A stretch of 64,000 nt of DNA from Candidatus Wolfebacteria bacterium RIFOXYD12_FULL_48_21 (GTDB taxonomy: Bacteria > Patescibacteriota > Minisyncoccia > UBA6257 > UBA9933): assembly GCA_001793945.1 (NCBI GenBank), contig MGIW01000003.1, forward strand, positions 129,630 to 193,629. The letters run 5' to 3'. How positions within the stretch are numbered: the first letter of the stretch is position 1; each line of letters begins with the position of its first letter. Below the pieces are notes generated by a model that saw only the letters and a program-made list of their open reading frames with translations, searched no databases and was not told the origin of the DNA. Of this stretch, positions 2,763 to 60,690 are shown piece by piece. Made by a program: the position numbers and the translations under genes.

Positions 2763-3046
2763 AGGGAAGTTATGTCATTCCGTAACTGAGCTTGTCGAAG
2801 TGATACGGAATCTCGTTGATCAAATACGAGATCCTGAAACAAGTTCAGGATGACATTCAATACCGAAGCGTCCAACATGTACGCCTTGCGAAGGCGTACA
2901 TATGGTTCAAATTCTATTACATATTGCCTTCGGCAAGCGCCGGTAGTGGATTCCCGCCGGAGTTTACCCCGTACTGCGATACGGGGCCCGAAGTTCGGGA
3001 ATGACAAGAGAGGAGCCGGTATGACAATATACACGAGACGCGTCTT
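2763..3046. repeat. Cluster of palindromic hairpin (MITE/REP-like) elements separating the two ComEC ORFs
   Basis: Contains gtcattccgtaactgagcttgtcgaagtgatacggaatc and ggatgacattc/ggaatgacaag modules shared with dozens of other intergenic loci. Confidence 0.6.
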
Positions 3047-4486
3047 CTACGCATCGCCCAATATTTGCGTCTTGCGATGACGCAAATATAGTAGTATTCC
3101 TCCGACGACTGCGTAATAGAACAATAACAATACACCCGTCATTGGCATTGCAAATCCTTTATATGCGCCGAACAGCTCTATTACTCCTATCTCGTATTGC
3201 AACAGCACCGACACACCCCACGCGGGTATGGTCGCTAGCGGAACCGCAACAAACCCGATTGCCGCTATAAGAAATCCCAATCCCATTGTAACGGGAATAA
3301 ACGAGAGGATGACAATATTGGATGCGAGCGACACCAGCGAAAACGAACCGATTGATTGCATGAGTATGGGAAACACCATGAGCTGCGCCGACAGCGTACC
3401 CGACAAGTTTTCCCGCCAATTTAGCACGCCGCTTTTCTTTCGCTTAATGTATGCATCAAGATATGGCTTCACATAAATGATGCCTATTAGTGCGACAAAT
3501 GAAAGCTGAAACCCGAGGTCGTACCGAAGCACATTCGGGTTATACAACACCATAGCGCAGGCGCTTATGGCTATCGCGTTGCGCATGCTATGTGTGCGCC
3601 CAATGTGAGTTGCCAACAACACGATACTCCCCATGATCGCCGCGCGCACCACCGATGCTTCGGCGCCGGCCATGACCACGAAGCCTACTACAGCGCCGAG
3701 TGTTGCGTAAAACGCCGCTGTGCGGCGCAACAGCAACCCACAGGCCAACAGTATCGCTTCCGCAACCACACTAATGTTATACCCGGACAGCGCAACCAAG
3801 TGCGTCGTGCCGCTGTTTGCCATATTTTCCCTGAACTCCCAGTCGAACTCGGCGCGTTCGCCCAGTGTGATCCCCGCGAGCAGTGCCGCTTCGTCGGCAG
3901 GCAATGTCCGCTTGTATGTTTCAACGGCTGATCTTCTTATCGCAAATAGTCGCGTTACAATCGGATTGCCGTCGTTTCTTTTTACTCTATCCACTTCGGG
4001 AAATTGCATCGTTGCAAACAATGCGTCTTTCAATAAAAACCTCCAGCTATCTTCTTTTGGTCTTTGTATGTTTCCTGTCAGCACAAGCGCATCGCCATAT
4101 GCTACGGTCGGATATGCCCGAGCTACTACCGAAAGTCTTCCCGTATGCGGCTCGTCCAGCCGCACGATAAGCCTTTGGCTGTTTTCCATCTTGCGGACCT
4201 CTATTACATGCGCGCGTATTGCCGCCTGCGTGCCTATGAGCGGCGCTATTTGGTCCTGTTGATGCACATTATATCCGGTCCAATACAGCCCTCCCAATAT
4301 GCCCATGAGCGCAAGCGTAGCCAGCCACCCCAGTCGGACACTCCCTTTTTTGTATGCGATCCAACCGAGGCTTCCCGCAATGACCACAACGCTTGCGGAC
4401 ATGCCCGAGAGGTTCATTGCCGGGGCAAAAAATATGCCAAGCAGAAAAAACACGATCCCGAAAAATACGGATTCGTGGAGGTGCAT
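3047..4486 (-). CDS. comEC: ComEC/Rec2 competence-family integral membrane domain protein (first half of a split ComEC)
   Basis: 479-aa polytopic membrane protein with a ComEC-like competence domain, directly upstream and co-oriented with the MBL-domain ORF. Confidence 0.55.
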   Translation of the reverse strand: MHLHESVFFGIVFFLLGIFFAPAMNLSGMSASVVVIAGSLGWIAYKKGSVRLGWLATLALMGILGGLYWTGYNVHQQDQIAPLIGTQAAIRAHVIEVRKMENSQRLIVRLDEPHTGRLSVVARAYPTVAYGDALVLTGNIQRPKEDSWRFLLKDALFATMQFPEVDRVKRNDGNPIVTRLFAIRRSAVETYKRTLPADEAALLAGITLGERAEFDWEFRENMANSGTTHLVALSGYNISVVAEAILLACGLLLRRTAAFYATLGAVVGFVVMAGAEASVVRAAIMGSIVLLATHIGRTHSMRNAIAISACAMVLYNPNVLRYDLGFQLSFVALIGIIYVKPYLDAYIKRKKSGVLNWRENLSGTLSAQLMVFPILMQSIGSFSLVSLASNIVILSFIPVTMGLGFLIAAIGFVAVPLATIPAWGVSVLLQYEIGVIELFGAYKGFAMPMTGVLLLFYYAVVGGILLYLRHRKTQILGDA

Positions 4487-4747
4487 ATTAGATTTGTGAC
4501 ATGGTTAATGTTGCAAGGTGCATGGGAATGTTTATCATCCCCGGCGCTTTTATTTGTCATCCCGAACTTCGGGCCCCGTATCGCAGTGCGGGGTAAACTC
4601 CGGCGGGGATCCAGAGTTTTCTGCAGTGGCGGTGTTTGGATATTCAGACTCTGGATCCCGTGTCCCCGTATCGTGGTACGGGGCAGGCTGCGCACGGGAT
4701 GACAATACGAAGAGGAGTGACGATTTGCGCAGGGATGGAACAATTGC
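4487..4747. repeat. Hairpin repeat cluster (module ctggatcccgtgtccccgtatcgtggtacggggcaggctgcgcacgggatgacaat)
   Basis: This module recurs almost verbatim at 17570-17640 (reverse orientation), 35015-35075 and 47170-47230. Confidence 0.65.
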
Positions 4748-5275
4748 TTAAAAATCTACGCCTTTTTTTGCTTTTATCCCCTTTGAAAACGCGTGTTTTA
4801 TTTCGTTCATTTCCGTTACGGTGTCGGCCAATGCGATGAAACTTTTTGGCGCGTTGCGACCGGTCAGAATTACATCGATGCTTTCGGGGACTTTTTTTAA
4901 TAAGTCAGTTACGCTTTTTGCCGTAATCAATTTCAATTCCACTGCATTGTTTATTTCGTCAAGGATCACGAGGTCGTATTTTTTTGACGCGATTAATTTC
5001 TTTGCTTCTTGCAGTCCATCTTCGGCCGCCTTTTTATGTTCCTTGAATGGCAATGCATCTCCTGGAAGATTTACAAACCCTTTTCCTGTTTTGATTATTC
5101 TGAATTTGCCCGTAGGTATGTTGCATGCCTTTGCGAATAGGTCTTCCCCACTCTTCCATGGACCTTTTATGAACTGTATCATCACAACCTTTTTCCCGTA
5201 GCCCAATGCACGCAAGGCTACGCCAAGTGAGGCGGTTGTCTTTCCTTTTCCATTGCCAGTGTTTATGAGGATCAT
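4748..5275 (-). CDS. cobO: ATP:cob(I)alamin (corrinoid) adenosyltransferase, CobO/BtuR family
   Basis: MILINTGNGKGKTTASLGVALRALGYGKKVVMIQFIKG P-loop signature of CobA/CobO adenosyltransferases. Confidence 0.65.
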   Translation of the reverse strand: MILINTGNGKGKTTASLGVALRALGYGKKVVMIQFIKGPWKSGEDLFAKACNIPTGKFRIIKTGKGFVNLPGDALPFKEHKKAAEDGLQEAKKLIASKKYDLVILDEINNAVELKLITAKSVTDLLKKVPESIDVILTGRNAPKSFIALADTVTEMNEIKHAFSKGIKAKKGVDF

Positions 5276-6767: not shown

Positions 6768-6820
6768 ATTGCTTTCAATGTAGCAAAATTAAAAAACGGC
6801 GTCAGCCGTTTTTTGCCATG

Positions 6821-6903
6821 TGCGCGGGAGAGGACTTGAACCTCCACGGGATTGCTCCCACAACCACCTCAAGGTTGCGCGCCTGCCATTTCGCCACCCG
6901 CGC
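6821..6903 (-). tRNA. tRNA-Leu(GAG), class II with a long variable arm
   Basis: The reverse complement reads GCGCGGGTGGCGAAATGGCAGGCGCGCAACCTTGAGGTGGTTG...GGTTCAAGTCCTCTCCCGCGCA. It has a 7-bp acceptor stem, anticodon stem CAACC/GGTTG and loop TTGAGGT (anticodon GAG). Confidence 0.7.
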
Positions 6904-6908: not shown

Positions 6909-7556
6909 TTACCCACCAATACTATCTAAAACCTTCCTAATTTTCAAGTGCTTGCGGGATAGACATCTTACATCATCCGCATAGTACATATATTTGATTA
7001 ATATATCTGATTCTTTCTTCGCGTACCTTAATTGATACACCGAGCTGCTTGGTTTTTCCGCACAATGCCCTTTTATTCCGCACGACTGATTTATCTCCGA
7101 GCGTAGCCAATCAATATGACCGCGACTTGCCGAAACGAAGCTCGTATAATACATGAGGCTTGATTTCCACCGCGGATCCCAGTATGAATAAAAGCACCCA
7201 TCCCCATCAAAATGCCCCCTCAAGAAATCTGCAAAATATTTTTTAGGAATATTTATTTCTTTTAAAATTTTTGTCTTATTCGGCATCAAACCTATTTCTA
7301 TCAAAAAATCATAGAATATTCTGTCTCCCAATTGGATCCGAAAATAATCTTTCTTCTCAGTATATCCGCTCGTATGGCCCTCGGTTTTATTGGAAATACC
7401 AAGACATTCCCTAAAATTATTGATCATCTCCAAATCCTTTGATACAAGAACGATATGTCTCCCATCTTTCGAAAGGCTTCCGTCCGTCACAATCAACCCA
7501 ATCGCATACGCGAACTCAGGAGACCATTCCAGCCTTACTTTGCCGAGCGGTTTCAT
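6909..7556 (-). CDS. Free-standing double-motif LAGLIDADG homing endonuclease
   Basis: Motif 1 is FAYAIGLIVTDGSL and motif 2 is ADFLRGHFDGDGCF. It starts 5 bp upstream of tRNA-Leu(GAG). Confidence 0.7.
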   Translation of the reverse strand: MKPLGKVRLEWSPEFAYAIGLIVTDGSLSKDGRHIVLVSKDLEMINNFRECLGISNKTEGHTSGYTEKKDYFRIQLGDRIFYDFLIEIGLMPNKTKILKEINIPKKYFADFLRGHFDGDGCFYSYWDPRWKSSLMYYTSFVSASRGHIDWLRSEINQSCGIKGHCAEKPSSSVYQLRYAKKESDILIKYMYYADDVRCLSRKHLKIRKVLDSIGG

Positions 7557-7965: not shown

Positions 7966-8252
7966 AGTTCGCTTATATTAGTAGATTATGGGGCTGTTGT
8001 CAAACGCACTCTGTCATTCCGAGCGCGGGTCCCGTATCAAGTACGGGATAAACTCCGGCGGGAATCCAGTGTCTTTAATATAGGTCATCACTACTGCAGA
8101 AAACTCTGGATCCCGTGTCGGAGCACGGGATGACACTGCGGGGAGCGGTGGAAATGTGAGATTAGAGGTGTGAGATGTGAGGCGTGGGGATGATGATGCG
8201 AATAAAAACCCCTGCCGTTAAGCAGGGGGTGTATGCAAACAAACGAACAGAC

Positions 8253-9116: not shown

Positions 9117-9339
9117 TTTTTCTCCTCCTTAAAAATCTGTTTTATAATTGTGTAAAGGTTTCTGACTGAAGAATGCACTAAATGTTTGTTTTTGTCAAAT
9201 CCTGTATTCCGAGTGGAGTGGAGCGCGTGCCGCCATATCCGCCAGCTGACGGAGGTGGAGCAGGAATCTGCTGCCACTCACAACTGCAGATCCCTCGGCA
9301 GGCTCGGGATGACAACTCAAGAAAGTTGTTTACCGCGCC

Positions 9340-10140: not shown

Positions 10141-10410
10141 GCTATAACCTATAACTAATGACTAATGACCGATGACTAATAACGGGATGCGGGGGGTAAT
10201 GTACTTGAGTGTCATCCCCGCGGAGGGGGGGATCCAGAGTACACATGCGAAATACTGGATACCCGTTTTCACGGGAATGACAACGAGGTTGGCCTGTCAT
10301 CCCGAGTGTAACGCAGCGAAGCGGAGTGAAATCGAGGGATCTGCGGTAACAAGCAGATTCCTCGGCTCCTCCGTCGGCTGACGGATGCGCTCGGAATGAC
10401 AATACGGGGA
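10141..10410. repeat. Composite repeat: TAACYRATAAC low-complexity module + gggatgcgggg + hairpin module gtcatcccgagtgcaacgcagcgaagcggagtgaaatcgagggatctg...cgctcggaatgaca
   Basis: The same hairpin module is nearly identical at 25860-25970 and 34840-34935. Confidence 0.65.
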
Positions 10411-10514
10411 AGGGGGGTAGAGATGAGAGGTGGGAGATGAGAAAAAAAATAGGGGGCTGCCTCGCGCAAGGCAGCCCCCGTACTACAGAGGAAGGAGAGT
10501 GGTGGTGGGTGGTA

Positions 10515-12316: not shown

Positions 12317-12383
12317 TGTCATTCCCGCGAAGGCGGGAATCCACTTCTATTTAAATAGATTCCCGCCTTCGCGGGAATGACAG
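12317..12383. repeat. Perfect 25-bp inverted repeat hairpin tgtcattcccgcgaaggcgggaatc / gattcccgccttcgcgggaatgaca (17-nt loop) in the rpsA-MBL divergent intergenic region
   Basis: Read directly from the sequence. It is a member of the gtcattccc...gggaatgaca family. Confidence 0.6.
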
Positions 12384-13017: not shown

Positions 13018-13597
13018 ATTAGTCTAATTTCACTATTCCCCGCGGTTGTCATCCCGAGCTTGTCGAGGGATCTGCAGTTTTGTAAAGCAGATTCCTCGAC
13101 TCCTCCGTGGGCTGACGGATTCGCTCGGAATGACAATTGCCATGCGCCATTATCTCCAACGGATTCGCCGATCCGACCAAAAAACAAAGCAGAAATGGCT
13201 GATCGGGTTGACTGGCGCTTCCGCTCTGATTATCATCTTTGCGTGGGTGCTTTATATGCAGGCGTTCGTATTTACCCGCTCGGATGACACCGTGAAAGAA
13301 GACATGCGCATAGCATTTTGGCCGGTGCTCAAAAACGGACTATCCATTACCGGCTCATCCGTTAGGCATGCATTCGACGATATTCTTTCCGAAATGCCGG
13401 AGGTTGGAAGAAGGACCACAACGATAGAGAATCCAGAATGATAGTACAAACTCAACCCATGTCATCCTGAGCTTGTCGAAGGATCTGCAGTTTTGTAAAG
13501 CAGATTCCTCGGCTACGCGGAATACCGCGGAGTTTACCCTGAGCTTGTCGAACGGGCTCAGAATGACACCCATGCCCAAACAATAACCTTAATTACC
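13018..13597. repeat. Hairpin repeat modules (gtcatcccgagcttgtcgagggatctgcagttttgtaaagcagattcctcg...ctcggaatgaca) flanking and overlapping a short ORF
   Basis: Two near-identical copies at 13050-13140 and 13455-13580. Confidence 0.6.
13141..13441 (+). CDS. Small hypothetical membrane protein (single TM helix)
   Basis: ORF only. The start was chosen at the Met that follows the repeat module. Confidence 0.2.
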
Positions 13598-16051: not shown

Positions 16052-16194
16052 TGCGAGACCAGAGATACGAGGCACGAGGTTAGAAAAAATGGAATGCGAA
16101 AGCATTCCATTTTTTCTTATCTCTTGTCTCTGGTCTCTCACCTCTAACCTCCAATCTCTTACCTCTTACCTCCCTCTTCTGCTATACTATACAT

Positions 16195-17478
16195 ATGCAA
16201 CTCACACGCAATCAGATTATGATTCTTGGCGGAGCGGCGCTCACCATCGTCCTATTTATCGGCATCTTTGTTTATCTTATCCCCGCATTGCAGCAACAAA
16301 GCTCCGATGAGCCCGCCACAAAAATAACGCTTACTATTTGGGGTATAGAGGACCCGGGTAATTTTTCCGCGCTCACGAGCGCATACACCGCTGCGCACCC
16401 GAATGTGCAGCTGCGCTACACGCAGGTTCCCGAAGACCGCTACGAACAGACCCTGCTTAACGCGCTTGCCACCGACATGGGGCCGGATATTCTTATGGTG
16501 CACCGCAGTTGGGTGCAACGATACAGCGACAAGATCATGGCAGCCGACCATCCGGAGATCCAGCCGGCGGAACTTCGCAGCCTTTTTCCGAATGTTGTTG
16601 CCAATGACTTTACCTACCTGAATTATGTATTCGCCCTTCCGCTATACATCGACTCGCCTGCGCTCTTCTATAATAAAGCTCTGTTCGACAACAAAGGCGT
16701 TGCCGTTGCGCCTAAAACATGGAACGACATAAAGACGCTTGTTCCGTATTTTACGGAGTTCACCGTCAATAGACAGTTGCAAAAATCAGCCATAGCACTC
16801 GGTGGCACGACCAAATCCATTACGAACGCGCCCGATATTCTTTCCTTGCTCATGTTCCAGTTCGGAGCAAAAAATCTCGAGACCATTGGGCAGCGCACAT
16901 CGTTTGAAGCCTCGGCAAAAAATGCGCTCGACTTCTATACACAATTTTCTACGCCGAACAATCCGAACTACACATGGAACGATTCATTTGCACGCGCAGA
17001 TAATGCGTTCGGTGCGGGCGACACTGCCATGACCATCGGCTACGCACGCGATATGAAAGGACTTGTGCAAAAAAACCCCTATCTCGACTTTGGCGTTTAC
17101 CCAATGCCGCAAAACGATACGACCAATCTGGTCAACTATGCCGATTACTGGGGGCTCGGCGTTTCCGCAAAAAGTCTGAACATCAAATTTGCATGGCGCT
17201 TCGTCATTAACGCGACCACTGACCCTGCGCTGGCCTCGCTTTACATGACGCGCTCCGGGAATCCCCCTGCGCTTCGCACGCTCATCAACGATACGCTTCG
17301 CGACCCCAAACTTGGCGTGTTTTCCCGTCAGGCACTCACCGCCCGAGCTCCATTCCAATATGAAGTTACCGGTTATCGCATCGCACTTTCCCGCGCCATC
17401 GAATCGGTGTTGACCGGAAAATTCAATTCACAATCCGCCCTTGAAAAGGCTTCTGCCGAGATCAATGATCTGTTTTGA
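16195..17478 (+). CDS. ABC transporter extracellular solute-binding protein (family 1, sugar-type)
   Basis: N-terminal TM/signal sequence, ~420 aa, with the conserved SBP_bac_1-like layout. Confidence 0.5.
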   Translation: MQLTRNQIMILGGAALTIVLFIGIFVYLIPALQQQSSDEPATKITLTIWGIEDPGNFSALTSAYTAAHPNVQLRYTQVPEDRYEQTLLNALATDMGPDILMVHRSWVQRYSDKIMAADHPEIQPAELRSLFPNVVANDFTYLNYVFALPLYIDSPALFYNKALFDNKGVAVAPKTWNDIKTLVPYFTEFTVNRQLQKSAIALGGTTKSITNAPDILSLLMFQFGAKNLETIGQRTSFEASAKNALDFYTQFSTPNNPNYTWNDSFARADNAFGAGDTAMTIGYARDMKGLVQKNPYLDFGVYPMPQNDTTNLVNYADYWGLGVSAKSLNIKFAWRFVINATTDPALASLYMTRSGNPPALRTLINDTLRDPKLGVFSRQALTARAPFQYEVTGYRIALSRAIESVLTGKFNSQSALEKASAEINDLF

Positions 17479-17817
17479 TTATTGCATTATTCCCGCGCCC
17501 ACCTGCAACGCTATAGCAACTGCGCACAGGAAGGCTGAGAGGTAGTGCGAGAAGGTTGTCATCCCGTGCGCAGCCTGCCCCGTACCACGATACGGGGACA
17601 CGGGATCCAGAGTTTTCTGCAGTAGTAACGCCCTGCGCTTAAGACACTGGGTTCCAGATCGAGTCCGGAATGACGATACAAAGAAAATGACAATGCGGTT
17701 AATGTGTCATTCCGAGTGGAGCAGTACTCTGCGAAATCGAGGAATCTGCTTTCTGCTTGCGGGCTGCAGATCCCTCGACAAGCTCGGGATGACAGTCTAT
17801 GCTAATAGCATATCCAT
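17479..17817. repeat. Hairpin repeat cluster (reverse-orientation copy of the ccccgtaccacgatacggggacacgggatccag module, plus gtcattccgagtggagcag...gctcgggatgaca)
   Basis: Shared modules with 4650-4715 and 9210-9300. Confidence 0.6.
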
Positions 17818-18216
17818 ATGAAAAAAATAATCCTCTCTTTCACTTTATCCTTGGCGCTCATCTCTTTACTCGCTGCTCCTGTCGTTTTTGGCGCCGGGCT
17901 CGTGCAATGCGACGAACAGAACCCTGCAAGCTGCACCTTGTGCGCACTCTTTGCCACCGTCAAGGCGATCTATGATTTCATTACCCAGCTCACTATCGTA
18001 CTCGCCGTCGGCTATATCATGTTTGGCGGATATGAGATGCTCATAGCCGGAGCAAATCCGGGGCTTTACGCAAAGGGCAAAAATCACATCTTCCAAGCAT
18101 TCATTGGCCTCGCCATCGTTCTTGCCGCATGGTTCATTGTTGATATTCTTATGCGCGCCCTTACCGGTTCGGGCGATATCTACGGCGCACCGTGGAGAAC
18201 ACTGAATTGCCAGTAA
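17818..18216 (+). CDS. Small secreted protein with two hydrophobic helices, TrbC/VirB2-pilin-like (paralogue 1 of 3)
   Basis: Signal peptide followed by two hydrophobic helices separated by a short loop, ~130 aa. It is one of three tandem paralogues. Confidence 0.35.
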   Translation: MKKIILSFTLSLALISLLAAPVVFGAGLVQCDEQNPASCTLCALFATVKAIYDFITQLTIVLAVGYIMFGGYEMLIAGANPGLYAKGKNHIFQAFIGLAIVLAAWFIVDILMRALTGSGDIYGAPWRTLNCQ

Positions 18217-21446: not shown

Positions 21447-21761
21447 CTTCCCTCTCCTTCCGCGTTAGCGATGTAGATTCCTTTTATATATTCAGTTCTT
21501 AAAGGTCAGTCTTATTTAATATATATATACCATATTTGTATTCGTTTGTCAATATGTACAGAAAGCCCGGTTCTGGCTATACTTTTTTTACTAATTGCTT
21601 TGTATTTGTCATTCCGAGCCCATTCGACAAGCTCAGGGTGAACTCCGTGAAACGGAGCCGAGGAATCTGCCTTTACTACAGATACCTCGTCCGCCGACTG
21701 GCGGATCTGTATGACAACTTATCCGTTATTGGTCGTAGGTTGTTAGTTATAAGTTATTTTA

Positions 21762-21807
21762 GCCGGGGTGGCGAAATTGGCAGACGCACTCTCGTAAAAC
21801 TTCACAT
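21762..21807 (+). pseudogene. tRNA 5'-half fragment (acceptor GCCGGGG + D-arm TGGCGAAATTGGCAGACGC) immediately 5' of tRNA-Leu(TAG)
   Basis: The D-arm is almost identical to that of the adjacent intact tRNA-Leu. No anticodon or T arm follows. Confidence 0.3.
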
Positions 21808-21889
21808 GCCCCCATGGCGAAATTGGTAGACGCGCCAGTTTTAGGAACTGGTTCCGCAAGGATTAGAGGTTCGAGTCCTCTTGGGGGCA
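21808..21889 (+). tRNA. tRNA-Leu(TAG), class II
   Basis: Sequence GCCCCCATGGCGAAATTGGTAGACGCGCCAGTTTTAGGAACTGGTTCCGCAAGGATTAGAGGTTCGAGTCCTCTTGGGGGCA. It has a 7-bp acceptor stem, anticodon loop TTTAGGA (anticodon TAG) and T-loop TTCGAGT. Confidence 0.75.
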
Positions 21890-21895
21890 CATTCG

Positions 21896-42966: not shown

Positions 42967-43113
42967 GTTCCTGCCTCCCCATAGTAGTGGTTTTTGACTA
43001 AGTTCTAATATAATTTTACAACTTTTGTTTACTTTAGTCAATCCCCATATAACTAACACACACTTCGGACAAAAAGAGGCGTGGTACTTGATGGTTATGA
43101 ATGAGTTTGTCAT

Positions 43114-43275
43114 TCCGAGCGCAGCGGAGCGGAGTCGAGGAATCTGTTGCTACCAACAACTTTAGATTTCTCAACAGGATAGGGGACGGGGATCCAGGTT
43201 TTCTATAGCGGTGTCCGCTTTGCGCAAAAGACTCTGGATTCCGGCCTCCGCCGGAATGACAATACGGTATGGAAG
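43114..43275. repeat. Hairpin repeat block (gtcattccgagcgcagcggagcggagtcgaggaatctg…, ctggattccggcctccgccggaatgacaat)
   Basis: Shared modules. Confidence 0.6.
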
Positions 43276-45185: not shown

Positions 45186-45214
45186 AATGTAACGATGTCT
45201 GACATCGTTACATT
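45186..45214. repeat. 29-bp REP-like palindrome AATGTAACGATGTCTGACATCGTTACATT immediately upstream of the RAYT gene
   Basis: Inverted repeat read directly from the sequence. Confidence 0.7.
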
Positions 45215-45233
45215 TGCGTGCTATTATATAAAC

Positions 45234-45914
45234 ATGTCTGAACTATACCATGCTCTTAACCGAGGAGTTGATAAGAAGAAAATATTTCTGGACAAACAGG
45301 ACCACTTGCGATTTATTCATGACCTTTATGAATTCAATGACGAAGCTCCGGCGAGCAATAATTGCCACGGCTTTCGCCGGATGCCGGTTAAATGTAACGA
45401 TGTCGGACGTCGTTATATTAAACGATCCCGATTGGTTACCATCCATGCATTCTGTCTCATGCCAAACCATTATCATCTGCTTTTAAGCCCGCGCGTCGAG
45501 AATGGTATCCCTTTATTTATGAAGAAGTTGAATGGCGGATATGCAAAGTATTTCAACGAACGATACGATCGAAAAGGGACATTATTTGAGGGAAGGTATA
45601 AGTCGGTGCCGGTAACGGCGCAATCACACTTTATTCACTTGCCCTATTATATTCACTTGAACCCGTTGGATATGTTTGATCACGGATGGCGGGATCGGGT
45701 AGTTCATAGCCATGCCGATACCATAAAATATTTGGAAAATTATCGATGGTCGAGCCATTTGGACTATTTGGGGAAAAAGAATTTCCCCTCGGTTACACAA
45801 CGAGAGTTCCTGCTCGAATTTTTTGGAGGACAGGAGGGATACGCGCAAGCGTTAGCCCAATGGGTCAAAGATATTAGTATCAACGAGATACATGACATCA
45901 TCTTAGAAAAGTGA
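45234..45914 (+). CDS. IS200/IS605-family Y1 (HuH) transposase of the REP-associated tyrosine transposase (RAYT) type, interrupted in-frame by a copy of its own palindrome (45391-45419)
   Basis: HuH motif CLMPNHYHLLL and Tyr motif GTLFEGRYKS. The palindrome is translated as …VKCNDVGRRYI… without a stop. Confidence 0.5.
   Translation: MSELYHALNRGVDKKKIFLDKQDHLRFIHDLYEFNDEAPASNNCHGFRRMPVKCNDVGRRYIKRSRLVTIHAFCLMPNHYHLLLSPRVENGIPLFMKKLNGGYAKYFNERYDRKGTLFEGRYKSVPVTAQSHFIHLPYYIHLNPLDMFDHGWRDRVVHSHADTIKYLENYRWSSHLDYLGKKNFPSVTQREFLLEFFGGQEGYAQALAQWVKDISINEIHDIILEK
45391..45419. repeat. Imperfect copy of the 29-bp palindrome inside the RAYT coding sequence
   Basis: aatgtaacgatgtcggacgtcgttatatt. Confidence 0.6.
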
Positions 45915-45928
45915 CTGCAGTAAACGCA

Positions 45929-45956
45929 AATGTAACGATGTCAGACGTCGTTACAT
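45929..45956. repeat. REP-like palindrome copy immediately downstream of the RAYT gene
   Basis: aatgtaacgatgtcagacgtcgttacat. Confidence 0.65.
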
Positions 45957-45970
45957 CGCAAGGTGTGCAT

Positions 45971-47036: not shown

Positions 47037-47470
47037 AGGGTGGGTATAAAGTATAAGGTATACAGTATAGGGTATGGGTGGGGTAATTTATAATTTTTAA
47101 TTTCTAATTTCTAATGAGGGAGGCGGGGATCCAGTATTCTCTGCGGTAGTGACACAGGGATATCTATACTCTGGATCCCGTGTCCCCGTATCGTGGTACG
47201 GGGCAGGCTGCGCACGGGATGACAATGCGGGGAGGAGAGGAGGGTATAAAGTATAAGGTATACAGTATAGGGTATGGGTGGGGTACGGGGGAGGGAGAAA
47301 AGAGATAAGAGGTGAGAGATGAGAGGGAAGGGGGAAATAACTTATGCCTGATAACGGATAATTAATAACGGGATGCGGGATACTAACTACTAACTAATGA
47401 CCGATGACGGGGGCCGGGGTGGAGACAGGAGGTTAGGGGTAAGGGAAAAGAGAGGGGAAGGAGAGTAATG
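47037..47470. repeat. Low-complexity and hairpin repeat block. The 46-bp direct repeat gggtataaagtataaggtatacagtatagggtatgggtggggta occurs at 47037 and 47245. There are also purine tracts, TAACYRATAAC and a ctggatcccgtgtccccgtatcgtggtacggggcaggctgcgcacgggatgacaatgcgggg module.
   Basis: Read directly from the sequence. Confidence 0.65.
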
Positions 47471-47472
47471 TG

Positions 47473-47502
47473 CAAAAAGTCGGCGCATGCGCCGACTTTT
47501 TA
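47473..47502. terminator. Intrinsic terminator aaaaagtcggcgcatgcgccgactttttatt downstream of dnaE
   Basis: Perfect 8-bp stem gtcggcgc/gcgccgac flanked by an A-run and a T-run. Confidence 0.55.
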
Positions 47503-47563
47503 TTCTGTTATTGGCTATGAGTTATAGGTTATTGGTTATTGGTTATAGGTTATAGGTTCTTAG

Positions 47564-50830: not shown

Positions 50831-51130
50831 AAATCTACACCTCTTCTTTGTCCCATTATACCTAATATGCTCTTTGGGGCAACTTTGCGTATGAGATGTG
50901 AGGTAGGGGGTGTGAGGTATGAGGTGGGAGGGGGGGGAGGGGGTATAAAGTATAAGGTATACGGTATACGGTATGGGGGGGGAGGGGAAGAAAAAAAGAG
51001 ATGAGAGGTGAGAGATAAGAGGGGGAGGAGAGATAAGGGGGAATTTCTAATTACTAATTTTTAATTTCTAAATAAAATACTGGATCCCGGCCTCCGCCGG
51101 GATGACAATGCAAAATATTGGATTCCTATT
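50831..51130. repeat. Purine-rich low-complexity and hairpin repeat block
   Basis: ggtataaagtataaggtatacggtatacggtatgggg, gagataagag tracts, and ctggatcccggcctccgccgggatgacaatgc. Confidence 0.6.
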
Positions 51131-51287
51131 TTTTTGCTTTCGCATAAAGCTACAGCAGGGCAATGCGCGGGAATGACGGTGCCAAATGGGGTGTATTTTT
51201 ATTCCTATTGACACGGTTTTTAAATCCATTACTATATATCACAAATAAAGGTCATATTGTATTATTTTTACATACCAGACATTTTAA

Positions 51288-51527
51288 ATGGCACAAGAAA
51301 GTGTTGCGACTCCTACGCAGAATTATTTGGAGAACGAAGACCTTGTCTTCGAAATAGGTGACGAGGAAATTGAGACGAAGAAAAAGCGTGGCGATGACGA
51401 TCATGTCGGATACGGTCAGGAAGCCGAACCGGCCGATGATGATATCGTCTCGGGCGACGAGGAAGATGTAGAGCTTGAAGAGTTTTCCGGCTTCGATTGG
51501 GCCGACGAAGAAGACATCGTTGAATAA
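51288..51527 (+). CDS. Small highly acidic hypothetical protein
   Basis: 79 aa, D/E-rich, followed by an intrinsic terminator (51533-51563). Confidence 0.3.
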   Translation: MAQESVATPTQNYLENEDLVFEIGDEEIETKKKRGDDDHVGYGQEAEPADDDIVSGDEEDVELEEFSGFDWADEEDIVE

Positions 51528-51589
51528 GCCTTAAAAAAAGACGCTTTACTGCGTCTTTTTTTGTGCCTTTCTTTTAATTTTAGTACACT

Positions 51590-51900
51590 AATAAGGGGTA
51601 ATTTTAAATTTATAATTTATAATTTTTAATGAGGATGCGGGGGGGATAATTTTAAATTTATAATTTTTAATGAGGATGCGGGATTCCCGCCTTCGCGGGA
51701 ATGATATACTCCCCGTATTGTCATCCCGTGCCACGACACGGGATCCAGTGTTTTCCGCGGTAGTAACATATGGATGTTCAGACTCTGGATACCGACCGGA
51801 GTTTATCCCGTACTTGATACGGGACCCACATTCGGTATGACAAGGCGGGGGAAAATAACCTATAACCGATAACCTATAACGGGATGCGGGAGGATACTAA
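51590..51900. repeat. Hairpin repeat block (ggattcccgccttcgcgggaatgata, tgtcatcccgtgccacgacacgggatccag, TAACYRATAAC)
   Basis: Shared modules. 51700-51760 is near-identical to 26855-26905. Confidence 0.6.
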
Positions 51901-55321: not shown

Positions 55322-55399
55322 AAAATAAAATTTGTTTGTAATGCATTCTTACTACTTCTGTTACTATAATATATTAAAAATAGTAGAAGCAGTAGTAGG

Positions 55400-55475
55400 G
55401 GTGTGGACAGTGTGGATAAGTGGATAATGGATAACAATAGAAACGGATTTATTTAATTCTGCAGTGTGGATAAAA
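55400..55475. promoter_or_regulatory. DnaA-box cluster in the dnaA-dnaN intergenic region (tgtggacag, tgtggataa, tggataatg, tgtggataa)
   Basis: Multiple matches to TGTGGATAA (complement TTATCCACA) within 75 bp. Confidence 0.6.
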
Positions 55476-55487
55476 AGCGGGAAAAAA

Positions 55488-56855
55488 TTATTTGCTGTTG
55501 ATAACTTCTTTAATGGAAGTTATCTTATTTCCCAGTTTTTGGTCCGAAGTCAATAATTTCGAGATTTTATCGCATGCGTGCATAACTGTTGAATGGTCTC
55601 TTTTCCCCATTTTATACCCGATATCCGAGTAGGACATCCCCAAGAGATCCTTCATAAGAAACATGGTGATCTGACGCGGTTCGACAACCTCCTTTCTTCT
55701 TCCCTGGTCGGTCAGTTCCTTTTCAGTCAGTTCAAAAAAGTTTGCAACTACCTGCATAACCTGATTTGGGGTTACATTTTTAAAGGAATGTTTGGTCGTT
55801 TTGTCGATAATTTCTTCAACAATGGATTTTGTAACCTCAATACCCTTCACATCCTGATAAAACATGATTTTTTTCAGGACGCCCTCTATTTCCCGAATGT
55901 TTCGTTGCATTTTTTCCGCAATGAACTCAGCCACTTGATCGGAAACGGTCATGCCCTCCTGTTCCAACTTCTTTTTAATGATAGCGAGGCGCATTTCATA
56001 GTCGGGATAGGATATATCCACGATCATGCCACTGCTAAAGCGGGAGCGAAGCCGTTCTTCAAGAATGGAGGTTTCGTGAGGTGGGCGATCGGAAGAAAGA
56101 ATAATCTGCTTATCGTTATCATACAGCGCATTGAATGTGTGAAAAAATTCCTCTTCACTTGCCGCCTTTCCTGCTATGAACTGAATATCGTCGATAATAA
56201 GTACATCTACCGAGCGGTATATGCGCTTCATATCTTCCATCCGCCTGTTTTTTATGGAAAAGACAATGTCATTTACGAACTTTTCCGACGGAATATATTT
56301 GACCTTAAGATTATTGCCATGGGTCTGGCGAATCTGATTTCCTATGGATTGCATCAAATGGGTCTTTCCAAGGCCGGAACCACCATAGATGAATAACGGG
56401 TTATATTTTTTACCCATATCCTTTATGACCGCAAGGGAAGCGGCATAGGCGAGTTCGTTTGAAGAGCCTACTATATATGACTTAAAGGTATATTTCGGGT
56501 GGAGGTTTGTTTCCGGGTCTATCTTAAATTCGTCAAAGGTGGCTTGTTGCGGAGCAGAGGAACGCTCCTTTTTGCTCTCTCCATGGGCTTTTTGAGACTC
56601 TGCGGGCAAGGAGGCTACCGTGTAGCGCACTTTTCTTACTGAGTCGTCAAGGGAAACAAGAATCTCGAAGATCGATTTGTGATATTTATTCTCTACCCAT
56701 TCCTTTGCGAAGTTATTGGAAAGCGCTATTACCAGCTCTCCGTCCGCCGATCGGTCGAGCAGCCTGCTGTTTTTGAACCAGGTCAAAAAGTTGGGCTGGG
56801 TCATTTGTATTTCGAGCTCCGCCAAGGCGGATTTCCAGAGTTGATCGAGTTCCAT
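55488..56855 (-). CDS. dnaA: Chromosomal replication initiator protein DnaA
   Basis: AAA+ motifs (PLFIYGGSGLGKTHL, Walker B VDVLIIDDIQF) and the C-terminal DNA-binding domain (…GRRKEVVEPRQITMFLMKDL…). Confidence 0.9.
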   Translation of the reverse strand: MELDQLWKSALAELEIQMTQPNFLTWFKNSRLLDRSADGELVIALSNNFAKEWVENKYHKSIFEILVSLDDSVRKVRYTVASLPAESQKAHGESKKERSSAPQQATFDEFKIDPETNLHPKYTFKSYIVGSSNELAYAASLAVIKDMGKKYNPLFIYGGSGLGKTHLMQSIGNQIRQTHGNNLKVKYIPSEKFVNDIVFSIKNRRMEDMKRIYRSVDVLIIDDIQFIAGKAASEEEFFHTFNALYDNDKQIILSSDRPPHETSILEERLRSRFSSGMIVDISYPDYEMRLAIIKKKLEQEGMTVSDQVAEFIAEKMQRNIREIEGVLKKIMFYQDVKGIEVTKSIVEEIIDKTTKHSFKNVTPNQVMQVVANFFELTEKELTDQGRRKEVVEPRQITMFLMKDLLGMSYSDIGYKMGKRDHSTVMHACDKISKLLTSDQKLGNKITSIKEVINSK

Positions 56856-57252
56856 AATAAATAACGGTTAACTAATAACTCATGACCCATAACGGAATGC
56901 AAAAATCCAAAATTTCAAAAGAAATATACGGATAAGGGTCGTTTCTTTAACTAATAAAATCATTATACAGATTTATAAAATTATAGCGAATAGTGTGGAA
57001 AAGTAAAAAAATGGGGAATAGGTGTGGATAACTCGTATACCCCGCATAAACACTGGGTAAAATCACTCTACCCATTGACACAATATGCGGGAAAAGTTTG
57101 TGATTAGACCATAAAAATAGTTGTCCAAGTAGTTATCCACATACCTACAAAATAGATAATTTTAAAATTTTAAATTTGAAGAAGAATGCGTCTGGGCTTC
57201 TGTGCTGGGGAGGGCTTGCATTTTCTAACCAATTCCGATATAGTAGACCATT
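56856..57252. promoter_or_regulatory. Candidate oriC: DnaA boxes (56994 tgtggaaaa, 57023 tgtggataa, 57133 ttatccaca) and an AT-rich unwinding region (57150-57185) between divergent dnaA and rpmH
   Basis: Canonical rnpA-rpmH / dnaA-dnaN arrangement with perfect DnaA boxes on both strands. Confidence 0.6.
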
Positions 57253-57399
57253 ATGTCAGTTACATACCAGCCAAACAAGCGAAAAAGAGCGCGAACCCAC
57301 GGGTTTTTGGAGCGCACCGCAACACCGGGTGGCCGCCGTGTTTTGGTAGCCCGCCGAAGGAAGGGGCGGAAGCAGTTGACCGTTAAAAAGGCCTCGTAA
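57253..57399 (+). CDS. rpmH: 50S ribosomal protein L34
   Basis: [44 protein letters not shown]. This ORF is not in the supplied track because it is shorter than the cutoff. Confidence 0.8.
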
Positions 57400-57522
57400 A
57401 TAACGAAGGCCTTTTTTAAACCAATAAAATCGCAAATGGCATCAGGAGGAGGGCTCTTTTTATCCTCCTTCAGCCATTTGCGATTTTATTGTATACTATA
57501 CATTATAGACAGAACTCTTAGC

Positions 57523-57846: not shown

Positions 57847-58172
57847 AACACACGCCTTGCAAATCATCATCCGTTTCTCTGTCATTCCCGCCCGTTCGAT
57901 GGGCTTAGGGTAAAACTCCGGCGGGAATCCACCTCATTTTTAAATAAATATTTTTCCTACTTTTTTAGTAAAAGTAGGGCAAAAATCGCGAGCGAATAAA
58001 AATGACGGAATGGTCTCGTAAATTTCTTACGAAAACGAGAACTCGCCGTTGCTACGGCTCAAACAACTCGTTTTCTGTGGAAATTTATTCTCGCCCATTT
58101 GATCCGACATTTTCACAGGCTCGCATAAGGCAAACATACAGAAAGAAGCGCTTTCACGCTCCTTTCCAATAT

Positions 58173-58436: not shown

Positions 58437-58440
58437 AAAA

Positions 58441-58709: not shown

Positions 58710-60476
58710 TTACACCATCTGATAATGTATTTCGCGGACGCCTTTGAGGCTCTTTATTTTTAGCACCAGTTTTTCTGCTTTTCCGCTGTTGTCTATATCG
58801 CAGAGGATTTTGATGATGGGGAGCGATCCGCGTTGGGAGGGGTGAATGTGCGTGAGGTTGATGATGTTGATTCGCGCGCGGGATATGACGCTTGAAATAT
58901 CTTTCAGCATACCCACCCGATCATCCACGGTTATTTTTAGTTCGAGTTGCGGGCCTTTGCGCAATATAGATGTTTCCTGCCTGATCATTCTTCGAATGCG
59001 TTGTTTTGCCGATGATGTCTTTGCGAACTTCAGCCACGATTCCGATGGCTTTTTATTTTTTTGCACCAAAATATCCACCAGGTCTCCCGATTGTATTTGA
59101 TAATCAAGCGGAACTATTTTGTTGTTTATCTTTGCGCCTACGCAGCGGTCGCCTATTTCGCTGTGGATCTGATACGCAAAGTCTATGGGCGTCGAACCCG
59201 CGGGCAGATCGATGACTTCCCCTTTTGGCGTTATGGCAAAGACCCGATGCTTAAAGAAATCTATTTTCAGTGAGTTTACAAATTCCTCCGGATCCGTAAA
59301 ATCTTTTTGCCATTCGCGCAATTGATTGACCCAATTCAATTCGTCCTGCTTTGCTGAAATGTTTTTATTTCCTTCGATAAACTTTTTTGTCGTCTTAGCC
59401 TGGCTATATGCCCAGTGCGCGGCGATGCCGTGCTCCGCCGCATCGTGCATTTGTAATGTGCGGATCTGTATTTCCGTTATCTTTTTATCTTCACAAAATA
59501 CGGTCGTGTGCAGACTTTTGTATCCGTTCGGTTTCGGAAGTGCGATATAATCTTTAATCTTTCCGGGTAGTGGCGGCCACAGTTGGTGTACGATGCCGAG
59601 TGCGGCATAACATTCTTCCACCGTGGAAACAATCACACGCAACGCGACCAAATCGTAGATCTGGTCGAGGTTCATGTCGGAGCGTAGCAGTTTTTTATAC
59701 AGACTTGAAATGCGTTTTGCGCGGTAGTTGATCGCAATCGGTTTTATGTGCGCGTTTGCGAGTGCCGCCCGCAACACGGGTTCCACGCGCTCAAGATATG
59801 CGACGCGTTCGCTATATTTCTCTTCGACATTTTTTGTCATCCACTCGTGTTCTTCCGGATGCAGATACAAAAAAGTCAGGTCCTCGAGTTCGCCGGAAAG
59901 GTTTTGCATGCCGAGGCGATAGGCGAGCGGGGCATATATTTCGAGCGTTTCGAGCGCGATGCGTTTTTGTTTTAGCGGTGGCATGGCACCAAGTGTGCGC
60001 ATATTATGCAGTCGATCGGCAAGTTTGATAAAAACGACGCGCAGGTCTTCGCTGATCGCAAGAATCATTTTGCGCAAGTTTTCCGCTTGCTGGTTTACGC
60101 GATCCTTTTCCGTTTTTACCGATGTGCGGTATTTTAAATGGCCGAGTTTGGTGACGCCGTTTACTAAAAAAGAAACTTCTTCCCCAAACTCTTTTTTAAG
60201 TGTTTCGAGTTTGTAGGGCGTGTCTTCTACCGTGTCGTGTAAAAGCCCCGCCGCTATAGTGGTGGTGTCCATGTCCCATTCGGCAAGCGTGAGCGCGGTT
60301 TGGAATACATGGTTAAAATAGGGTTCCCCGGAGTTGCGCTTTTGCGGGGCGTGTTCCTTTTGTGCCGTTTGGAATGCCCTGCGTAAAAAATCCGTTTCTT
60401 CCGCGGATAACGCCCTGTGTTGTGTAATCGCTTGAGTCAAGGCTTCAAACGAGGATGTAGGTGGTTTAAGTGGCAT
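58710..60476 (-). CDS. rel: RelA/SpoT-homologue (p)ppGpp synthetase/hydrolase (HD, synthetase, TGS and ACT domains)
   Basis: HD motif GLLHDTVEDT, synthetase-domain pattern, and the C-terminal ACT domain. Confidence 0.8.
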   Translation of the reverse strand: MPLKPPTSSFEALTQAITQHRALSAEETDFLRRAFQTAQKEHAPQKRNSGEPYFNHVFQTALTLAEWDMDTTTIAAGLLHDTVEDTPYKLETLKKEFGEEVSFLVNGVTKLGHLKYRTSVKTEKDRVNQQAENLRKMILAISEDLRVVFIKLADRLHNMRTLGAMPPLKQKRIALETLEIYAPLAYRLGMQNLSGELEDLTFLYLHPEEHEWMTKNVEEKYSERVAYLERVEPVLRAALANAHIKPIAINYRAKRISSLYKKLLRSDMNLDQIYDLVALRVIVSTVEECYAALGIVHQLWPPLPGKIKDYIALPKPNGYKSLHTTVFCEDKKITEIQIRTLQMHDAAEHGIAAHWAYSQAKTTKKFIEGNKNISAKQDELNWVNQLREWQKDFTDPEEFVNSLKIDFFKHRVFAITPKGEVIDLPAGSTPIDFAYQIHSEIGDRCVGAKINNKIVPLDYQIQSGDLVDILVQKNKKPSESWLKFAKTSSAKQRIRRMIRQETSILRKGPQLELKITVDDRVGMLKDISSVISRARINIINLTHIHPSQRGSLPIIKILCDIDNSGKAEKLVLKIKSLKGVREIHYQMV

Positions 60477-60479
60477 GCT

Positions 60480-60690
60480 GTGATTGTATTACACCATATA
60501 GGGCAAGAAAAGGGAAGAAGGATAAGGGGGGGTATGGGGGAGGTATAAGGTATACGGTATGGAGTATACGGTATGGGCGGGGGGGTAAGGGGTGAGGTGT
60601 GAGGTGTGAGGTGGGAGATGAGGAAAAAGAGGGGGGTAGAGATATTTATACTCTGGATCCCGGCCTCCGCCGGGATGACAACCTCCCCTA
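60480..60690. repeat. Purine-rich low-complexity tract plus a ctggatcccggcctccgccgggatgaca hairpin module
   Basis: ggtataaggtatacggtatgg… and ggtgtgaggtgtgaggtgggagatgagg tracts. Confidence 0.55.

Follow-up and report, generated by a model that had tools for sequence, protein, structure and literature searches.

The window analysed here is a stretch of 64,000 nt from Candidatus Wolfebacteria RIFOXYD12_FULL_48_21, a member of the Candidate Phyla Radiation (CPR) with a genome of about 1 Mb. Its gene set, with gyrA, dnaE, dnaA-dnaN, fusA, ribosomal protein genes, thrS, the gene of a class A penicillin-binding protein (PBP), relA/spoT and comEC, is ordinary for a CPR bacterium. The organism lives in groundwater, and its DnaA recurs without change in assemblies from the Rifle aquifer. 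Spacers of at least 90 nt sum to about 13.7 kb, about one-fifth of the window, and the bulk of this spacer DNA is made of hairpin repeats and associated modules. We describe these hairpins and a small gene among them, ssn, for a GIY-YIG nuclease. With a probability of roughly three in four, the hairpins are the Ssn-related motif (SRM), the same kind of repeat as the CGTC-tagged repetitive extragenic palindromes (REPs), the dRS3 repeat or Neisseria Transformation Sequence (NTS) and the Rickettsia palindromic elements (RPEs) RPE-4 and RPE-6, and their cognate Ssn is encoded in the window.

Six assemblies of the window locus (L001-L006) are 99.96-100% identical, and their comparison yielded only contig breaks at a repeat block at 60.5 kb. 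The loci compared are a metagenome contig (L189), a congener (L217), L151, L219, L077, L138 and a Rickettsia locus; the contig L128 was used to read the sequence right of the replication origin as far as 73 kb. Of the contigs brought up by a metagenome scan with the lineage-specific flank, most were unrelated, and L138 and L189 alone were orthologous. The Rfam scan of the window gave three tRNAs and no other match, and PADLOC run on the window gave no meaningful result for Ssn.

An earlier note on this DNA had reported a family of palindromic modules. The family is real, and all five modules that the note quoted were recovered by repeat finding and are legible in the spacers where it placed them; it had not recognised them as one known unit (CGTC REP = dRS3/NTS = SRM). 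Judged by their letters, the quoted modules are variations on a single unit, which on the strand opposite to that of the note reads as a TGTC tag, an 8-bp stem, a 4-nt loop and the tail ATCCAG (alignment A1). The loop is of 4 nt or, in long-loop forms, of up to about 40 nt, and a module of 54-60 nt is the unit with a structured loop of 30 nt. The 5′ tag is TGTC in 17 of 19 aligned units (TATC and GGTC in the remaining two), stem pair 5-24 is A-U in all 19 and pair 6-23 is U-A in 17. Towards the consensus end (...ATCCAG), C25 is at least 90% conserved and A27 invariant. The upstream flank CCCCGCAT is conserved in the window as well. The 3′ motif of the note, RRATGACAATGCGGGG, has 12 copies where 0.03 would be expected, and the plus strand carries 10 of these; GACAATGC is distributed 14:1 in favour of that strand, on which most modules finish ...ATGC.

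The stem is under selection. It is 98% paired, four of its eight pairs have changed on both sides, and doubly changed stem cells number 21 against 6.5 in shuffles, a value reached in none of 500; the compensatory signal vanishes once the partner column is slid. Stem variants that keep pairing include ATTCCCGC, ATCCCGGC, ATACCGGC, ATTCCGGC, ATTCCCGT and ACCCCGGC.

The NTS consensus is CGTCATTCCCGCGMAVGCGGGAATCYRG, and a degenerate SRM was defined with it (Chenal et al. 2025, PMC11893778). The commonest unit of the window, TGTCATTCCCGCGCAGGCGGGAATCCAG, agrees with the NTS consensus in 27 of its 28 positions, and 27/28 is also the identity of the reverse complement of CTGGATTCCCGCCTGCGCGGGAATGACA with that consensus. 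With the published SRM expression the window gives 12 matches, where 100 dinucleotide shuffles average 0.26. The second family to which the units correspond is CGTC-1, a REP with the tag CGTC (TGTC in many repeats), 8-bp stems with A-T in positions one and two, 4-nt loops, a CCA tail and mostly head-to-head dimers; it has been equated with Neisseria dRS3 and Rickettsia RPE-6/RPE-4, and no dedicated transposase was found for CGTC REPs (Di Nocera, De Gregorio and Rocco 2013, PMC3733652). The window units have the CGTC-1 tag, AT-first 8-bp stem, 4-nt loop and CCA-type tail. Among species-representative genomes the hairpin pattern occurs in at least 120 stretches, from Proteobacteria, Planctomycetes, Nitrospirae, Chloroflexi, Bacteroidetes, several CPR lineages and a Rickettsia endosymbiont, a breadth consistent with the reported wide distribution.

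The gene that we assign to these hairpins lies within an open reading frame (ORF) at 35753-36190 (minus strand) with a GIY-YIG domain. The likely start is the ATG at 36034, giving a protein of 93 aa whose only Pfam domain is PF01541 and which has Y6, Y17 and E64. The Neisseria meningitidis nuclease SsnA is a single-domain GIY-YIG protein of 94 aa, inactivated by Y6A, Y17A and E64A (PMC11893778); a solved SsnA structure was looked for and none exists. The gene and its flanks are as follows:

35753-36034, minus strand: ssn-like gene for the 93-aa single-domain GIY-YIG protein (MQYYIYILANKRNGTLYIGVT...), from a PF01541 match at 1.8e-16, the translation and tblastn coordinates.
36047-36125, minus strand: SRM units upstream of ssn, read from the sequence; 12 nt separate the end of TGTCATACCGGCGCAGGCCGGTATCCAG from the ATG, and further up there is another unit, a degenerate one.
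35640-35751, no single strand: SRM units downstream of ssn, read from the sequence; an inverted unit at 35724-35751 (NTS-forward on the plus strand) and a long-loop unit on the minus strand.

The covariance model described below matches the upstream unit at 36047-36074 on the strand of the gene (45.6 bits) and the inverted unit directly after the ssn stop at 35724-35751 (45 bits). With inverted SRMs on both sides, ssn appears in the published NTS-ssn-NTS layout. The earlier note, which called the family non-autonomous, was right about a repeat family but overlooked this cognate gene inside the window.

Homologues of ssn were found in 12 loci, some of them one locus in different assemblies, the loci screened having been fetched solely by hairpin pattern and flank pattern. 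Identical hairpin bracketing is present in a Gammaproteobacterium (L060), in Methylotenera (L023) and in L099, L108 and L132. The homologues in these bracketed loci are 54-74% identical to the window Ssn, and several are flanked by exact Neisseria-type hairpins; for Methylotenera and the Gammaproteobacterium, which have Neisseria-type NTS, identity is 54-60%. In all, at least 7997 Ssn homologues were found at E ≤ 1e-5, mostly of 92-98 aa. Among the matches listed, identity is 66-81% across Omnitrophica, KSB1, anammox bacteria, Ignavibacteria, Zixibacteria and CPR, and such high identity across unrelated phyla suggests that Ssn has spread horizontally.

The units are combined in several ways. 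Composite palindromes are two inverted, heads-out units with a spacer of 40-60 nt (e.g. 26863-26958, 12317-12382 and 4555-4704), and the gtcatYccgag...ctcggRatgaca elements are two inverted long-loop units with a small central hairpin between them. Doublets fold as single long DNA hairpins with z of about -5.5 (for the 10145-10442 block, -30.6 kcal/mol, z -5.5). Besides at least nine head-to-head doublets, the window has several head-to-tail runs and about 13 singlets on the same strand. When end motifs and period-7 arrays are grouped, about 27-28 blocks result between 2773 and 60680, in agreement with the 28 or more that had been counted, and the combination of modules does differ from locus to locus as the note said. 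Its statement that nearly every intergenic region over 150 bp is filled was overstated: the repeats are there, in about 19-21 of 26 such regions. It also held that the hairpins are not simple terminator reuse, and they are indeed not canonical terminators; separate hairpin-plus-T-run terminators stand in the same spacers, and a loose terminator scan picks up a few units because of a CCAGTATTTT tail. The blocks, with a strand where one is assigned, are these:

2773-3026: first block, with a two-hairpin doublet (2773-2855) and a long-loop unit (2946-3006).
4555-4704: head-to-head doublet whose right arm is a 54-nt unit that recurs at 35014-35067 and 47171-47224 and, inverted, at 17557-17610.
8012-8186: doublet (long-loop arm at 8012, short unit at 8106-8135) and a GAGR heptamer array.
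9203-9314: long doublet of the TGTATTCCGAG...CTCGGGATGACA type.
10145-10442: TRAC array, head-to-head doublet (10210-10282), long doublet (10295-10401) and GAGR array.
12317-12382: two 28-nt units in a tight head-to-head doublet, with a left arm 2/28 off the Neisseria NTS consensus.
13047-13568: two long doublets, 13047-13135 and 13460-13568.
17557-17794: head-to-head doublet (17557-17676) and long doublet (17705-17794).
21607-21716: long doublet adjoining tRNA-Leu.
23133-23195, minus strand: SRM units, with a covariance-model match at 23147-23174.
24445-24870, minus strand: mosaic of heptamer arrays, head-to-tail SRM singlets (24528-24555 and 24566-24593), a doublet of the two-hairpin type (24732-24800) and a singlet (24841-24868).
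25859-27013: two mosaic blocks either side of a palindrome cluster at 26.3-26.7 kb, with long doublets (25859-25966 and 26083-26252), singlets (26021-26048 and 26823-26850), a head-to-head doublet (26863-26958) and TRAC heptamer arrays.
27500-28405, minus strand: mosaic upstream of a giant RCC1-repeat gene, with GTAT and GAGR arrays, SRM units (27900-27929, 28094-28121 and 28378-28405) and a doublet (28154-28222).
34838-35075: long doublet at 34838-34933, then a head-to-head one at 34952-35067 with the 54-nt long-loop unit for its right arm.
37339-37420: long doublet.
41006-41610: long doublet (41006-41113), head-to-head doublet (41408-41540) and TRAC arrays (41287-41321 and 41552-41586).
43108-43261: degenerate left arm and a 28-nt unit (43234-43261).
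47044-47552: mosaic of GTAT, AATT, GAGR and TRAC arrays, a truncated left arm at 47121 and the 54-nt unit (47171-47224); the array at 47518-47552, adjoining a terminator, is the only reversed TRAC array.
50889-51883: mosaics upstream of dnaE and the PBP gene, with arrays, singlets (51080-51107 and 51679-51706) and a head-to-head doublet (51719-51842).
57880-57932, plus strand: lone long-loop unit, NTS-forward on the plus strand, right of the origin.
60543-60680, minus strand: last block, with GTAT and GAGR arrays and a unit (60653-60680), right of the origin but oriented as on the left side; several assemblies break here.

Strand was called with a covariance model built from 19 units, whose two directions separate at about 48 versus about 12 bits; since it was trained on window units its detection is circular, while its strand call is not. 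At E ≤ 0.01 it finds 26 units in the window (21 matches of 28 nt score at least 37 bits), with TGTCAT to ATCCAG on the minus strand in 20 and on the plus strand in six. The six on the plus strand are without exception left arms of inverted pairs, and one of these pairs brackets ssn, so that lone units stand at about 13:0. The common orientation that the earlier note had seen on the plus strand is thereby borne out, and its independence of the strand of neighbouring genes holds over 57 kb. The bias recurs in L189 (18:5). Around a Y1 transposase gene in L151 singlets lie on both strands within 2 kb, so the bias is not absolute in relatives. Head-to-head dimers are the only arrangement in L219, L077 and the Rickettsia locus; L219 and the Rickettsia locus have only tight pairs, and the same-strand singlets and head-to-tail runs are therefore peculiar to this lineage.

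The bias must be read against the replication origin. Third-codon GC skew on the plus strand is negative for nearly every gene from 1 to 55 kb irrespective of gene strand and positive from 57 kb, and four of the six perfect DnaA boxes (55411, 55465, 57023 and 57133) flank dnaA. DnaA boxes are also present at 26732 and 27676. The skew switch and the boxes place the origin beside dnaA:

55322-57435, no strand: origin region with dnaA (55488-56855, minus strand), from GC skew and DnaA boxes; a reference point, not a member of the repeat family.

Because the skew does not switch before 55 kb, 1-55 kb is one replichore, over which the minus strand has leading-strand sequence and acts as the lagging-strand template. 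Hairpins are sparse on the right-hand side of the origin (57-73 kb, L128 included): lone units at 57880 (plus), 72852 (plus) and 60653 (minus), and one doublet. The claim that the bias persists on both sides of oriC consequently lacks support for the hairpins, nearly all copies being on one replichore with four elements beyond the origin, and these right-side data fit a flip and the absence of one equally well. That the bias ignores oriC had been argued from a misplaced or untested origin; across the origin, the plus orientation is kept only by a few heptamer arrays at 57.2, 60.5 and 63.5 kb. Overall, the observations of the note were largely right and are confirmed in part, and its interpretation is supported in part, having the right direction but being incomplete and wrong on oriC; the orientation-specific insertion that it suggested is at most a candidate reading.

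The palindrome cluster at 26.3-26.7 kb, with two DnaA boxes near, was considered as an origin and rejected, as third-codon GC skew keeps its sign there. It has five exact 16-bp palindromes TGTTTCACGTGAAACA (26391-26675, 41-83 bp apart) between a Xer-like recombinase gene and yraN, with GTGTGAAACA half-sites between them; the region is about 88% conserved in L189 and resembles an array of iterons or operators. Right of the origin, a plus-strand hairpin is followed at two sites by about 70 conserved nucleotides (...TACTTTTTTAaTAAAaGTAcGGCAAAAATCGCGAGCGAaTAAAA) directly upstream of genes (57933-58001, and L128 20464-20540, equivalent to about 72.88-72.96 kb of the window); it is found inverted in the congener L217 at about 4985-5030, matches no Rfam family and may be a promoter or leader element.

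Comparison with relatives supports gain, loss and reshuffling of the repeats over short time scales. The genes of L189 are 80-95% identical in DNA to the window at 20.6-28.1 kb, and its orthologous spacers have the same kinds of module in different numbers and orders. The congener L217 (Candidatus Wolfebacteria GW2011_GWE1_48_7; TsaE 71% identical) is collinear with the window at 28-51 kb, yet its rpsI-tsaE spacer is of 218 nt without the ssn cassette, its dnaE-thrS spacing is 162 nt against 2.4 kb in the window, and its syntenic 20 kb has just two weak covariance-model matches. The third line of evidence is in tsaE, an essential tRNA-modification gene:

35311-35384, minus strand: SRM-derived in-frame insertion of about 24 codons in tsaE (35094-35606, minus strand), from a covariance-model match at 35311-35338 and alignment A2.

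TsaE has 171 aa in the window and 147 aa in many Wolfebacteria, and relatives insert 0, 9, 11, 18, 24, 25 or 37 residues in one surface loop, the insertions being translated hairpin units such as LSSPRALSYRRRPVSS and LSFPRRRES. The suggestion that the family is active or recently active gains support, as to recent activity, from the L189 spacers, the nearly repeat-free L217 and the lineage-specific tsaE insertions.

The known systems to which the hairpins can be compared share some features with them and differ in others. Like SRM/NTS-Ssn (PMC11893778), the window has a 28-nt unit at 27/28 of the NTS that matches the SRM expression, clustered and mostly intergenic copies, a small single-domain GIY-YIG protein with the same catalytic positions, inverted hairpins bracketing its gene, and competence genes; the unit is directional because its flanks are non-palindromic, as in the NTS. 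Unlike the published system, it belongs to a CPR/Patescibacteria host with a genome of about 1 Mb, a group absent from that paper; it is tagged with TGTC instead of CGTC; several variants, in the stem or with long loops, coexist; the upstream flank is conserved, whereas in N. meningitidis it is variable; singlets are strongly biased to one strand, and units are interleaved with heptamer arrays. The N. meningitidis SsnA is biochemically characterised, whereas the window enzyme is known from sequence alone. With CGTC-1 (PMC3733652) the units share the CGTC/TGTC tag, the 8-bp stem with A-T then T-A first, the 4-nt loop, the CCA tail, head-to-head dimers with spacers of 20-100 bp that can fold as one long hairpin, and an occasional position within genes. 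In that survey, which covered five phyla and none of the CPR, head-to-tail dimers were negligible and singlets often dimer remnants, while the window is dominated by head-to-tail runs and same-strand singlets. The window also resembles the Neisseria intergenic mosaic elements (NIMEs) in its long intergenic mosaics, where dRS3-type hairpins separate a small vocabulary of modules shuffled in order at each locus. Its interleaved modules are, however, period-7 arrays and SRM doublets rather than Neisseria RS families, and its mosaics have no link to surface-antigen genes; NIME is a genus-level name, and this is resemblance, not membership. As with RPEs, hairpins of the same superfamily lie in frame in a loop of a housekeeping protein (TsaE) and vary in presence and length among relatives; unlike RPEs, they have one clear host gene in the window (tsaE), a second in-frame palindrome, in a Y1 gene, belonging to another repeat family.

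The heptamer arrays found among the hairpins are a second feature of the spacers. Tandem Repeats Finder reports about 25 arrays with a period of 7, 14 or 21. Arrays of at least three units are distributed over the plus and minus strands as 13:1 (TRAC+NNN), 12:1 (GAGR+NNN) and 6:0 (GTAT+NNN), so that the three asymmetric classes total 31:2 on one strand, with 0.14 arrays expected in shuffles. TRAC arrays nearly always finish ...ACGGGATGC. Partly complementary pairs of arrays stand around true terminators at 16052-16194, 36798-36892 and 40164-40239, one of them upstream of rpsI:

36798-36892, plus strand: TRAC array ending ...ACGGGATGC, together with a GGTTTTT array complementary to it in part, directly upstream of the rpsI start.

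Near-identical TRAC copies are at 39601-39693 (upstream of fusA) and 56862-56896 (upstream of dnaA). The rpsI, fusA and dnaA arrays (36798-36836, 39601-39639 and 56862-56900) are antisense to the gene and stop 6-7 nt from the start codon (...GGTTATTTAT-ATG on the coding strand), and between them and the starts there is no obvious ribosome-binding site. Tandem repeats go unmentioned in the Ssn paper (PMC11893778), and the closest description is of the TAACTGA direct repeats of Beggiatoaceae, Cyanobacteria and Bacteroidetes (MacGregor 2015, PMC4679880). Like these and the cyanobacterial STRR heptamers, the window arrays are intergenic tandem heptamers, and some of the window arrays end near the starts of essential genes. 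Unlike the TAACTGA repeats, the window arrays are degenerate (TRAC+NNN, with few exact TAACTGA units), have the three further classes GAGR, GTAT and AATT, finish ...ACGGGATGC, run antisense to rpsI, fusA and dnaA, keep to one genomic strand (31:2) and are interleaved with SRM hairpins. Period-7 arrays adjoin SRM hairpins elsewhere (L009 at 6930-7043, L024, L018 and L126, from Anaerohalosphaeraceae, Parcubacteria, Chloroflexota and Betaproteobacteria), one abutting a hairpin in an Anaerohalosphaeraceae chromosome; this chromosome, a Parcubacteria MAG and a Chloroflexota MAG are examples of SRM-bearing loci in which such arrays are common. In other phyla 19% of arrays lie within 200 nt of SRMs against 7% at random, which is weak and suggestive only and is confounded because both are intergenic; it may hint at a link between arrays and SRMs beyond this genome.

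How the system would work can be sketched by analogy. The N. meningitidis Ssn makes its cut upstream of the hairpin, at a distance of a few nucleotides, and does not act on duplex DNA, on RNA or on the opposite strand (PMC11893778). We infer that the window Ssn cuts the window hairpins; it would bind the unit as single-stranded DNA (ssDNA) in the TGTCAT to ATCCAG direction and cut a few nucleotides upstream. Read from the oligonucleotide lengths (37 nt = 6 nt + cut + NTS, PMC11893778), the cut would be about 3 nt upstream of the unit. The predicted cut in the window, marked by a slash, would be CCCCG/CAT-TGTCAT (...CCCCG/CATTGTCAT), at most one base from the end of the conserved module sequence; the conserved sequence next to the unit ends at ...ATGACAATG/C, about where this cut falls. 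[quoted passage not shown] Spread or retention would pass through ssDNA, with the cleavable strand on the lagging-strand template of the left replichore. The same system would also trim incoming ssDNA in the cell; comEC is at 3047-4486, and dprA lies just outside the window, at about 68-69 kb in L128.

We extend this, tentatively and with the odds clearly on the other side, to the proposal that the cassette is an element like an insertion sequence (IS), moving via ssDNA at the replication fork with a GIY-YIG nuclease replacing Y1 and with the doublets as its MITEs. If so, lagging-template singlets would explain the bias of about 13:0 on the left replichore and predict a flip at the origin, at which the two plus-strand singlets at 57.9 and 72.9 kb hint, and the same-strand arrays ending ...GGGATGC would be by-products of repeated cutting and repair beside hairpins.

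Several points weigh against a hairpin family served by the Ssn of the window. To our knowledge Ssn is a nuclease without strand-transfer activity, and we know of no transposition chemistry for it. The window has a single ssn copy, with which several stem variants (ATTCCCGC, ATCCCGGC, ATACCGGC...) coexist; for the N. meningitidis SsnA, changing the stem sequence while preserving its structure abolished activity (PMC11893778), so a single enzyme may not act on all the variants. In the long TGTCATYCCGAG...CTCGGRATGACA elements the outer palindrome is followed by G in place of the critical C; these elements would fit only through their inner, weaker hairpins. The reshuffling of spacers could be recombination between repeats, and the heptamer arrays are a co-resident feature for which the Ssn model does not account.

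The first alternative, which we judge unlikely, is that the hairpins are essentially immobile signals selected by the host, binding a protein or acting in RNA (as weak terminators, mRNA stabilisers or processing sites), with orientation due to selection in relation to replication or transcription and differences among relatives due to slippage and recombination. Selection on the stem speaks for it, as do the units followed by CCAGTATTTT that a loose terminator scan catches and the head-to-tail tandem copies, which suggest local duplication; REPs elsewhere have been proposed as RNA elements (PMC3733652), and the NTS has a host function in N. meningitidis, in transformation (PMC11893778). However, orientation ignores the strand of flanking genes across 57 kb, and a transcript-level role therefore cannot explain the bias. 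True T-run terminators adjoin the hairpins, the congener L217 does without hairpins at equivalent spacers, and the in-frame tsaE units come in several variants and lengths at one loop. The 70-80% identity of Ssn across unrelated phyla also counts against immobility, pointing as it does to horizontal spread.

It is quite improbable that the hairpins are instead REPs or REPINs mobilised by a Y1/HUH REP-associated tyrosine transposase (RAYT), encoded at 45234-45914. Single-strand transposition of the IS200/IS605 type produces a strand bias toward the lagging-strand template, as is the bias of the window, and the doublets are REPIN-like and fold as long hairpins. The gene itself has a PF01797 match (4e-10) and a weak match to the NCBIfam model REP_Tyr_transpos, whose 35.8 bits are far under the cut-off of 80. 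It is flanked by an unrelated palindrome, AATGTAACGATGTCnGACATCGTTACATT (five copies), rather than by TGTC hairpins, and a homologue in L151, 70% identical, is flanked by yet another; the Y1 enzyme thus co-varies with its own repeats. The SRM tag is TGTC/CGTC, not GTAG, in a family for which a dedicated transposase was not found (PMC3733652). Our proposal of an SRM system with Ssn keeps what it has in common with REP/REPIN-RAYT and IS200/IS605 systems (a short unpaired tag, doublets as the likely replicative unit, an enzyme gene flanked by its own repeats, a bias that matches the lagging-strand template) and differs in the tag and in having a GIY-YIG nuclease, not a Y1/HUH transposase. The Y1 gene and AATGTAACGATGTCnGACATCGTTACATT are a separate REP/RAYT-like pair, not the mobiliser of the TGTC hairpins.

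This pair spans 45186-45957 with its palindromes; more AATGTAACGATGTCnGACATCGTTACATT copies are at 1902-1930 and 28430-28458, and a copy in frame within the Y1 gene (45391-45419) encodes VKCNDVGRRYIK. The L151 homologue is at 2377-3063, with ATGTACGTCATCTGATGACGTACAT as its flanking palindrome. A third layout of a gene within its own palindromes is seen at 22194-22802, where two identical 40-bp palindromes (TTTGCTGTCCAAATGTACGACCGTACATTTGGACAGCAAA, 22107-22146 and 22848-22887) bracket a gene for a protein with a winged-helix region and a Cas2/PaaX-like domain.

That the elements are ordinary MITEs of a DDE-transposase IS, with terminal inverted repeats TGTCAT...ATGACA and target-site duplications, is scarcely credible: many copies do have clear terminal inverted repeats and measure 80-170 bp, but the flanks of 12 long doublets inspected by eye have no consistent target-site duplication, no DDE transposase is among the window genes, half-elements and head-to-tail arrays are common, and the ends are hairpins identical to the NTS.

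Other features of the region were noted in passing. An ORF with a LAGLIDADG homing-endonuclease domain (6909-7556, minus strand) adjoins tRNA-Leu (6820-6903) in a 550-nt spacer to which nothing else is assigned. Partial duplicates of 5′ or 3′ tRNA halves beside intact tRNAs (21760-21800 next to tRNA-Leu at 21808-21890; the L128 spacer 17327-17967, where the two halves of one tRNA are both repeated) may have been left behind by integration or excision events. Three tandem paralogous genes at 60833-63067 (216, 214 and 216 aa; no Pfam match) each have a similar terminator after them and a similar spacer upstream. The giant secreted-type protein encoded at 28460-34711 has RCC1-like repeats, seen as a 150-nt DNA periodicity at 29183-29929; the annotated start of its ORF, 27992, is probably too far upstream, as it runs through 470 nt of hairpin repeats.

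The result is mainly a re-identification: the system itself is known, and what is new is a CPR host, at phylum level, for the Ssn system. Uncommon here are how densely the repeats are packed into a genome of very small size, the singlets that keep to one strand, the insertions in frame in tsaE and the heptamer arrays. Hairpins of the CGTC/dRS3 type have been known since 2000 and their partner enzyme only since 2025. For the question of how they multiply, the window is a useful test case rather than a discovery, and its lineage a clean natural experiment, with a tiny genome, a repeat-poor congener, a relative with reshuffled spacers and insertions in an essential gene. CPR organisms depend on DNA uptake, and a nuclease that trims incoming single strands could matter to their biology.

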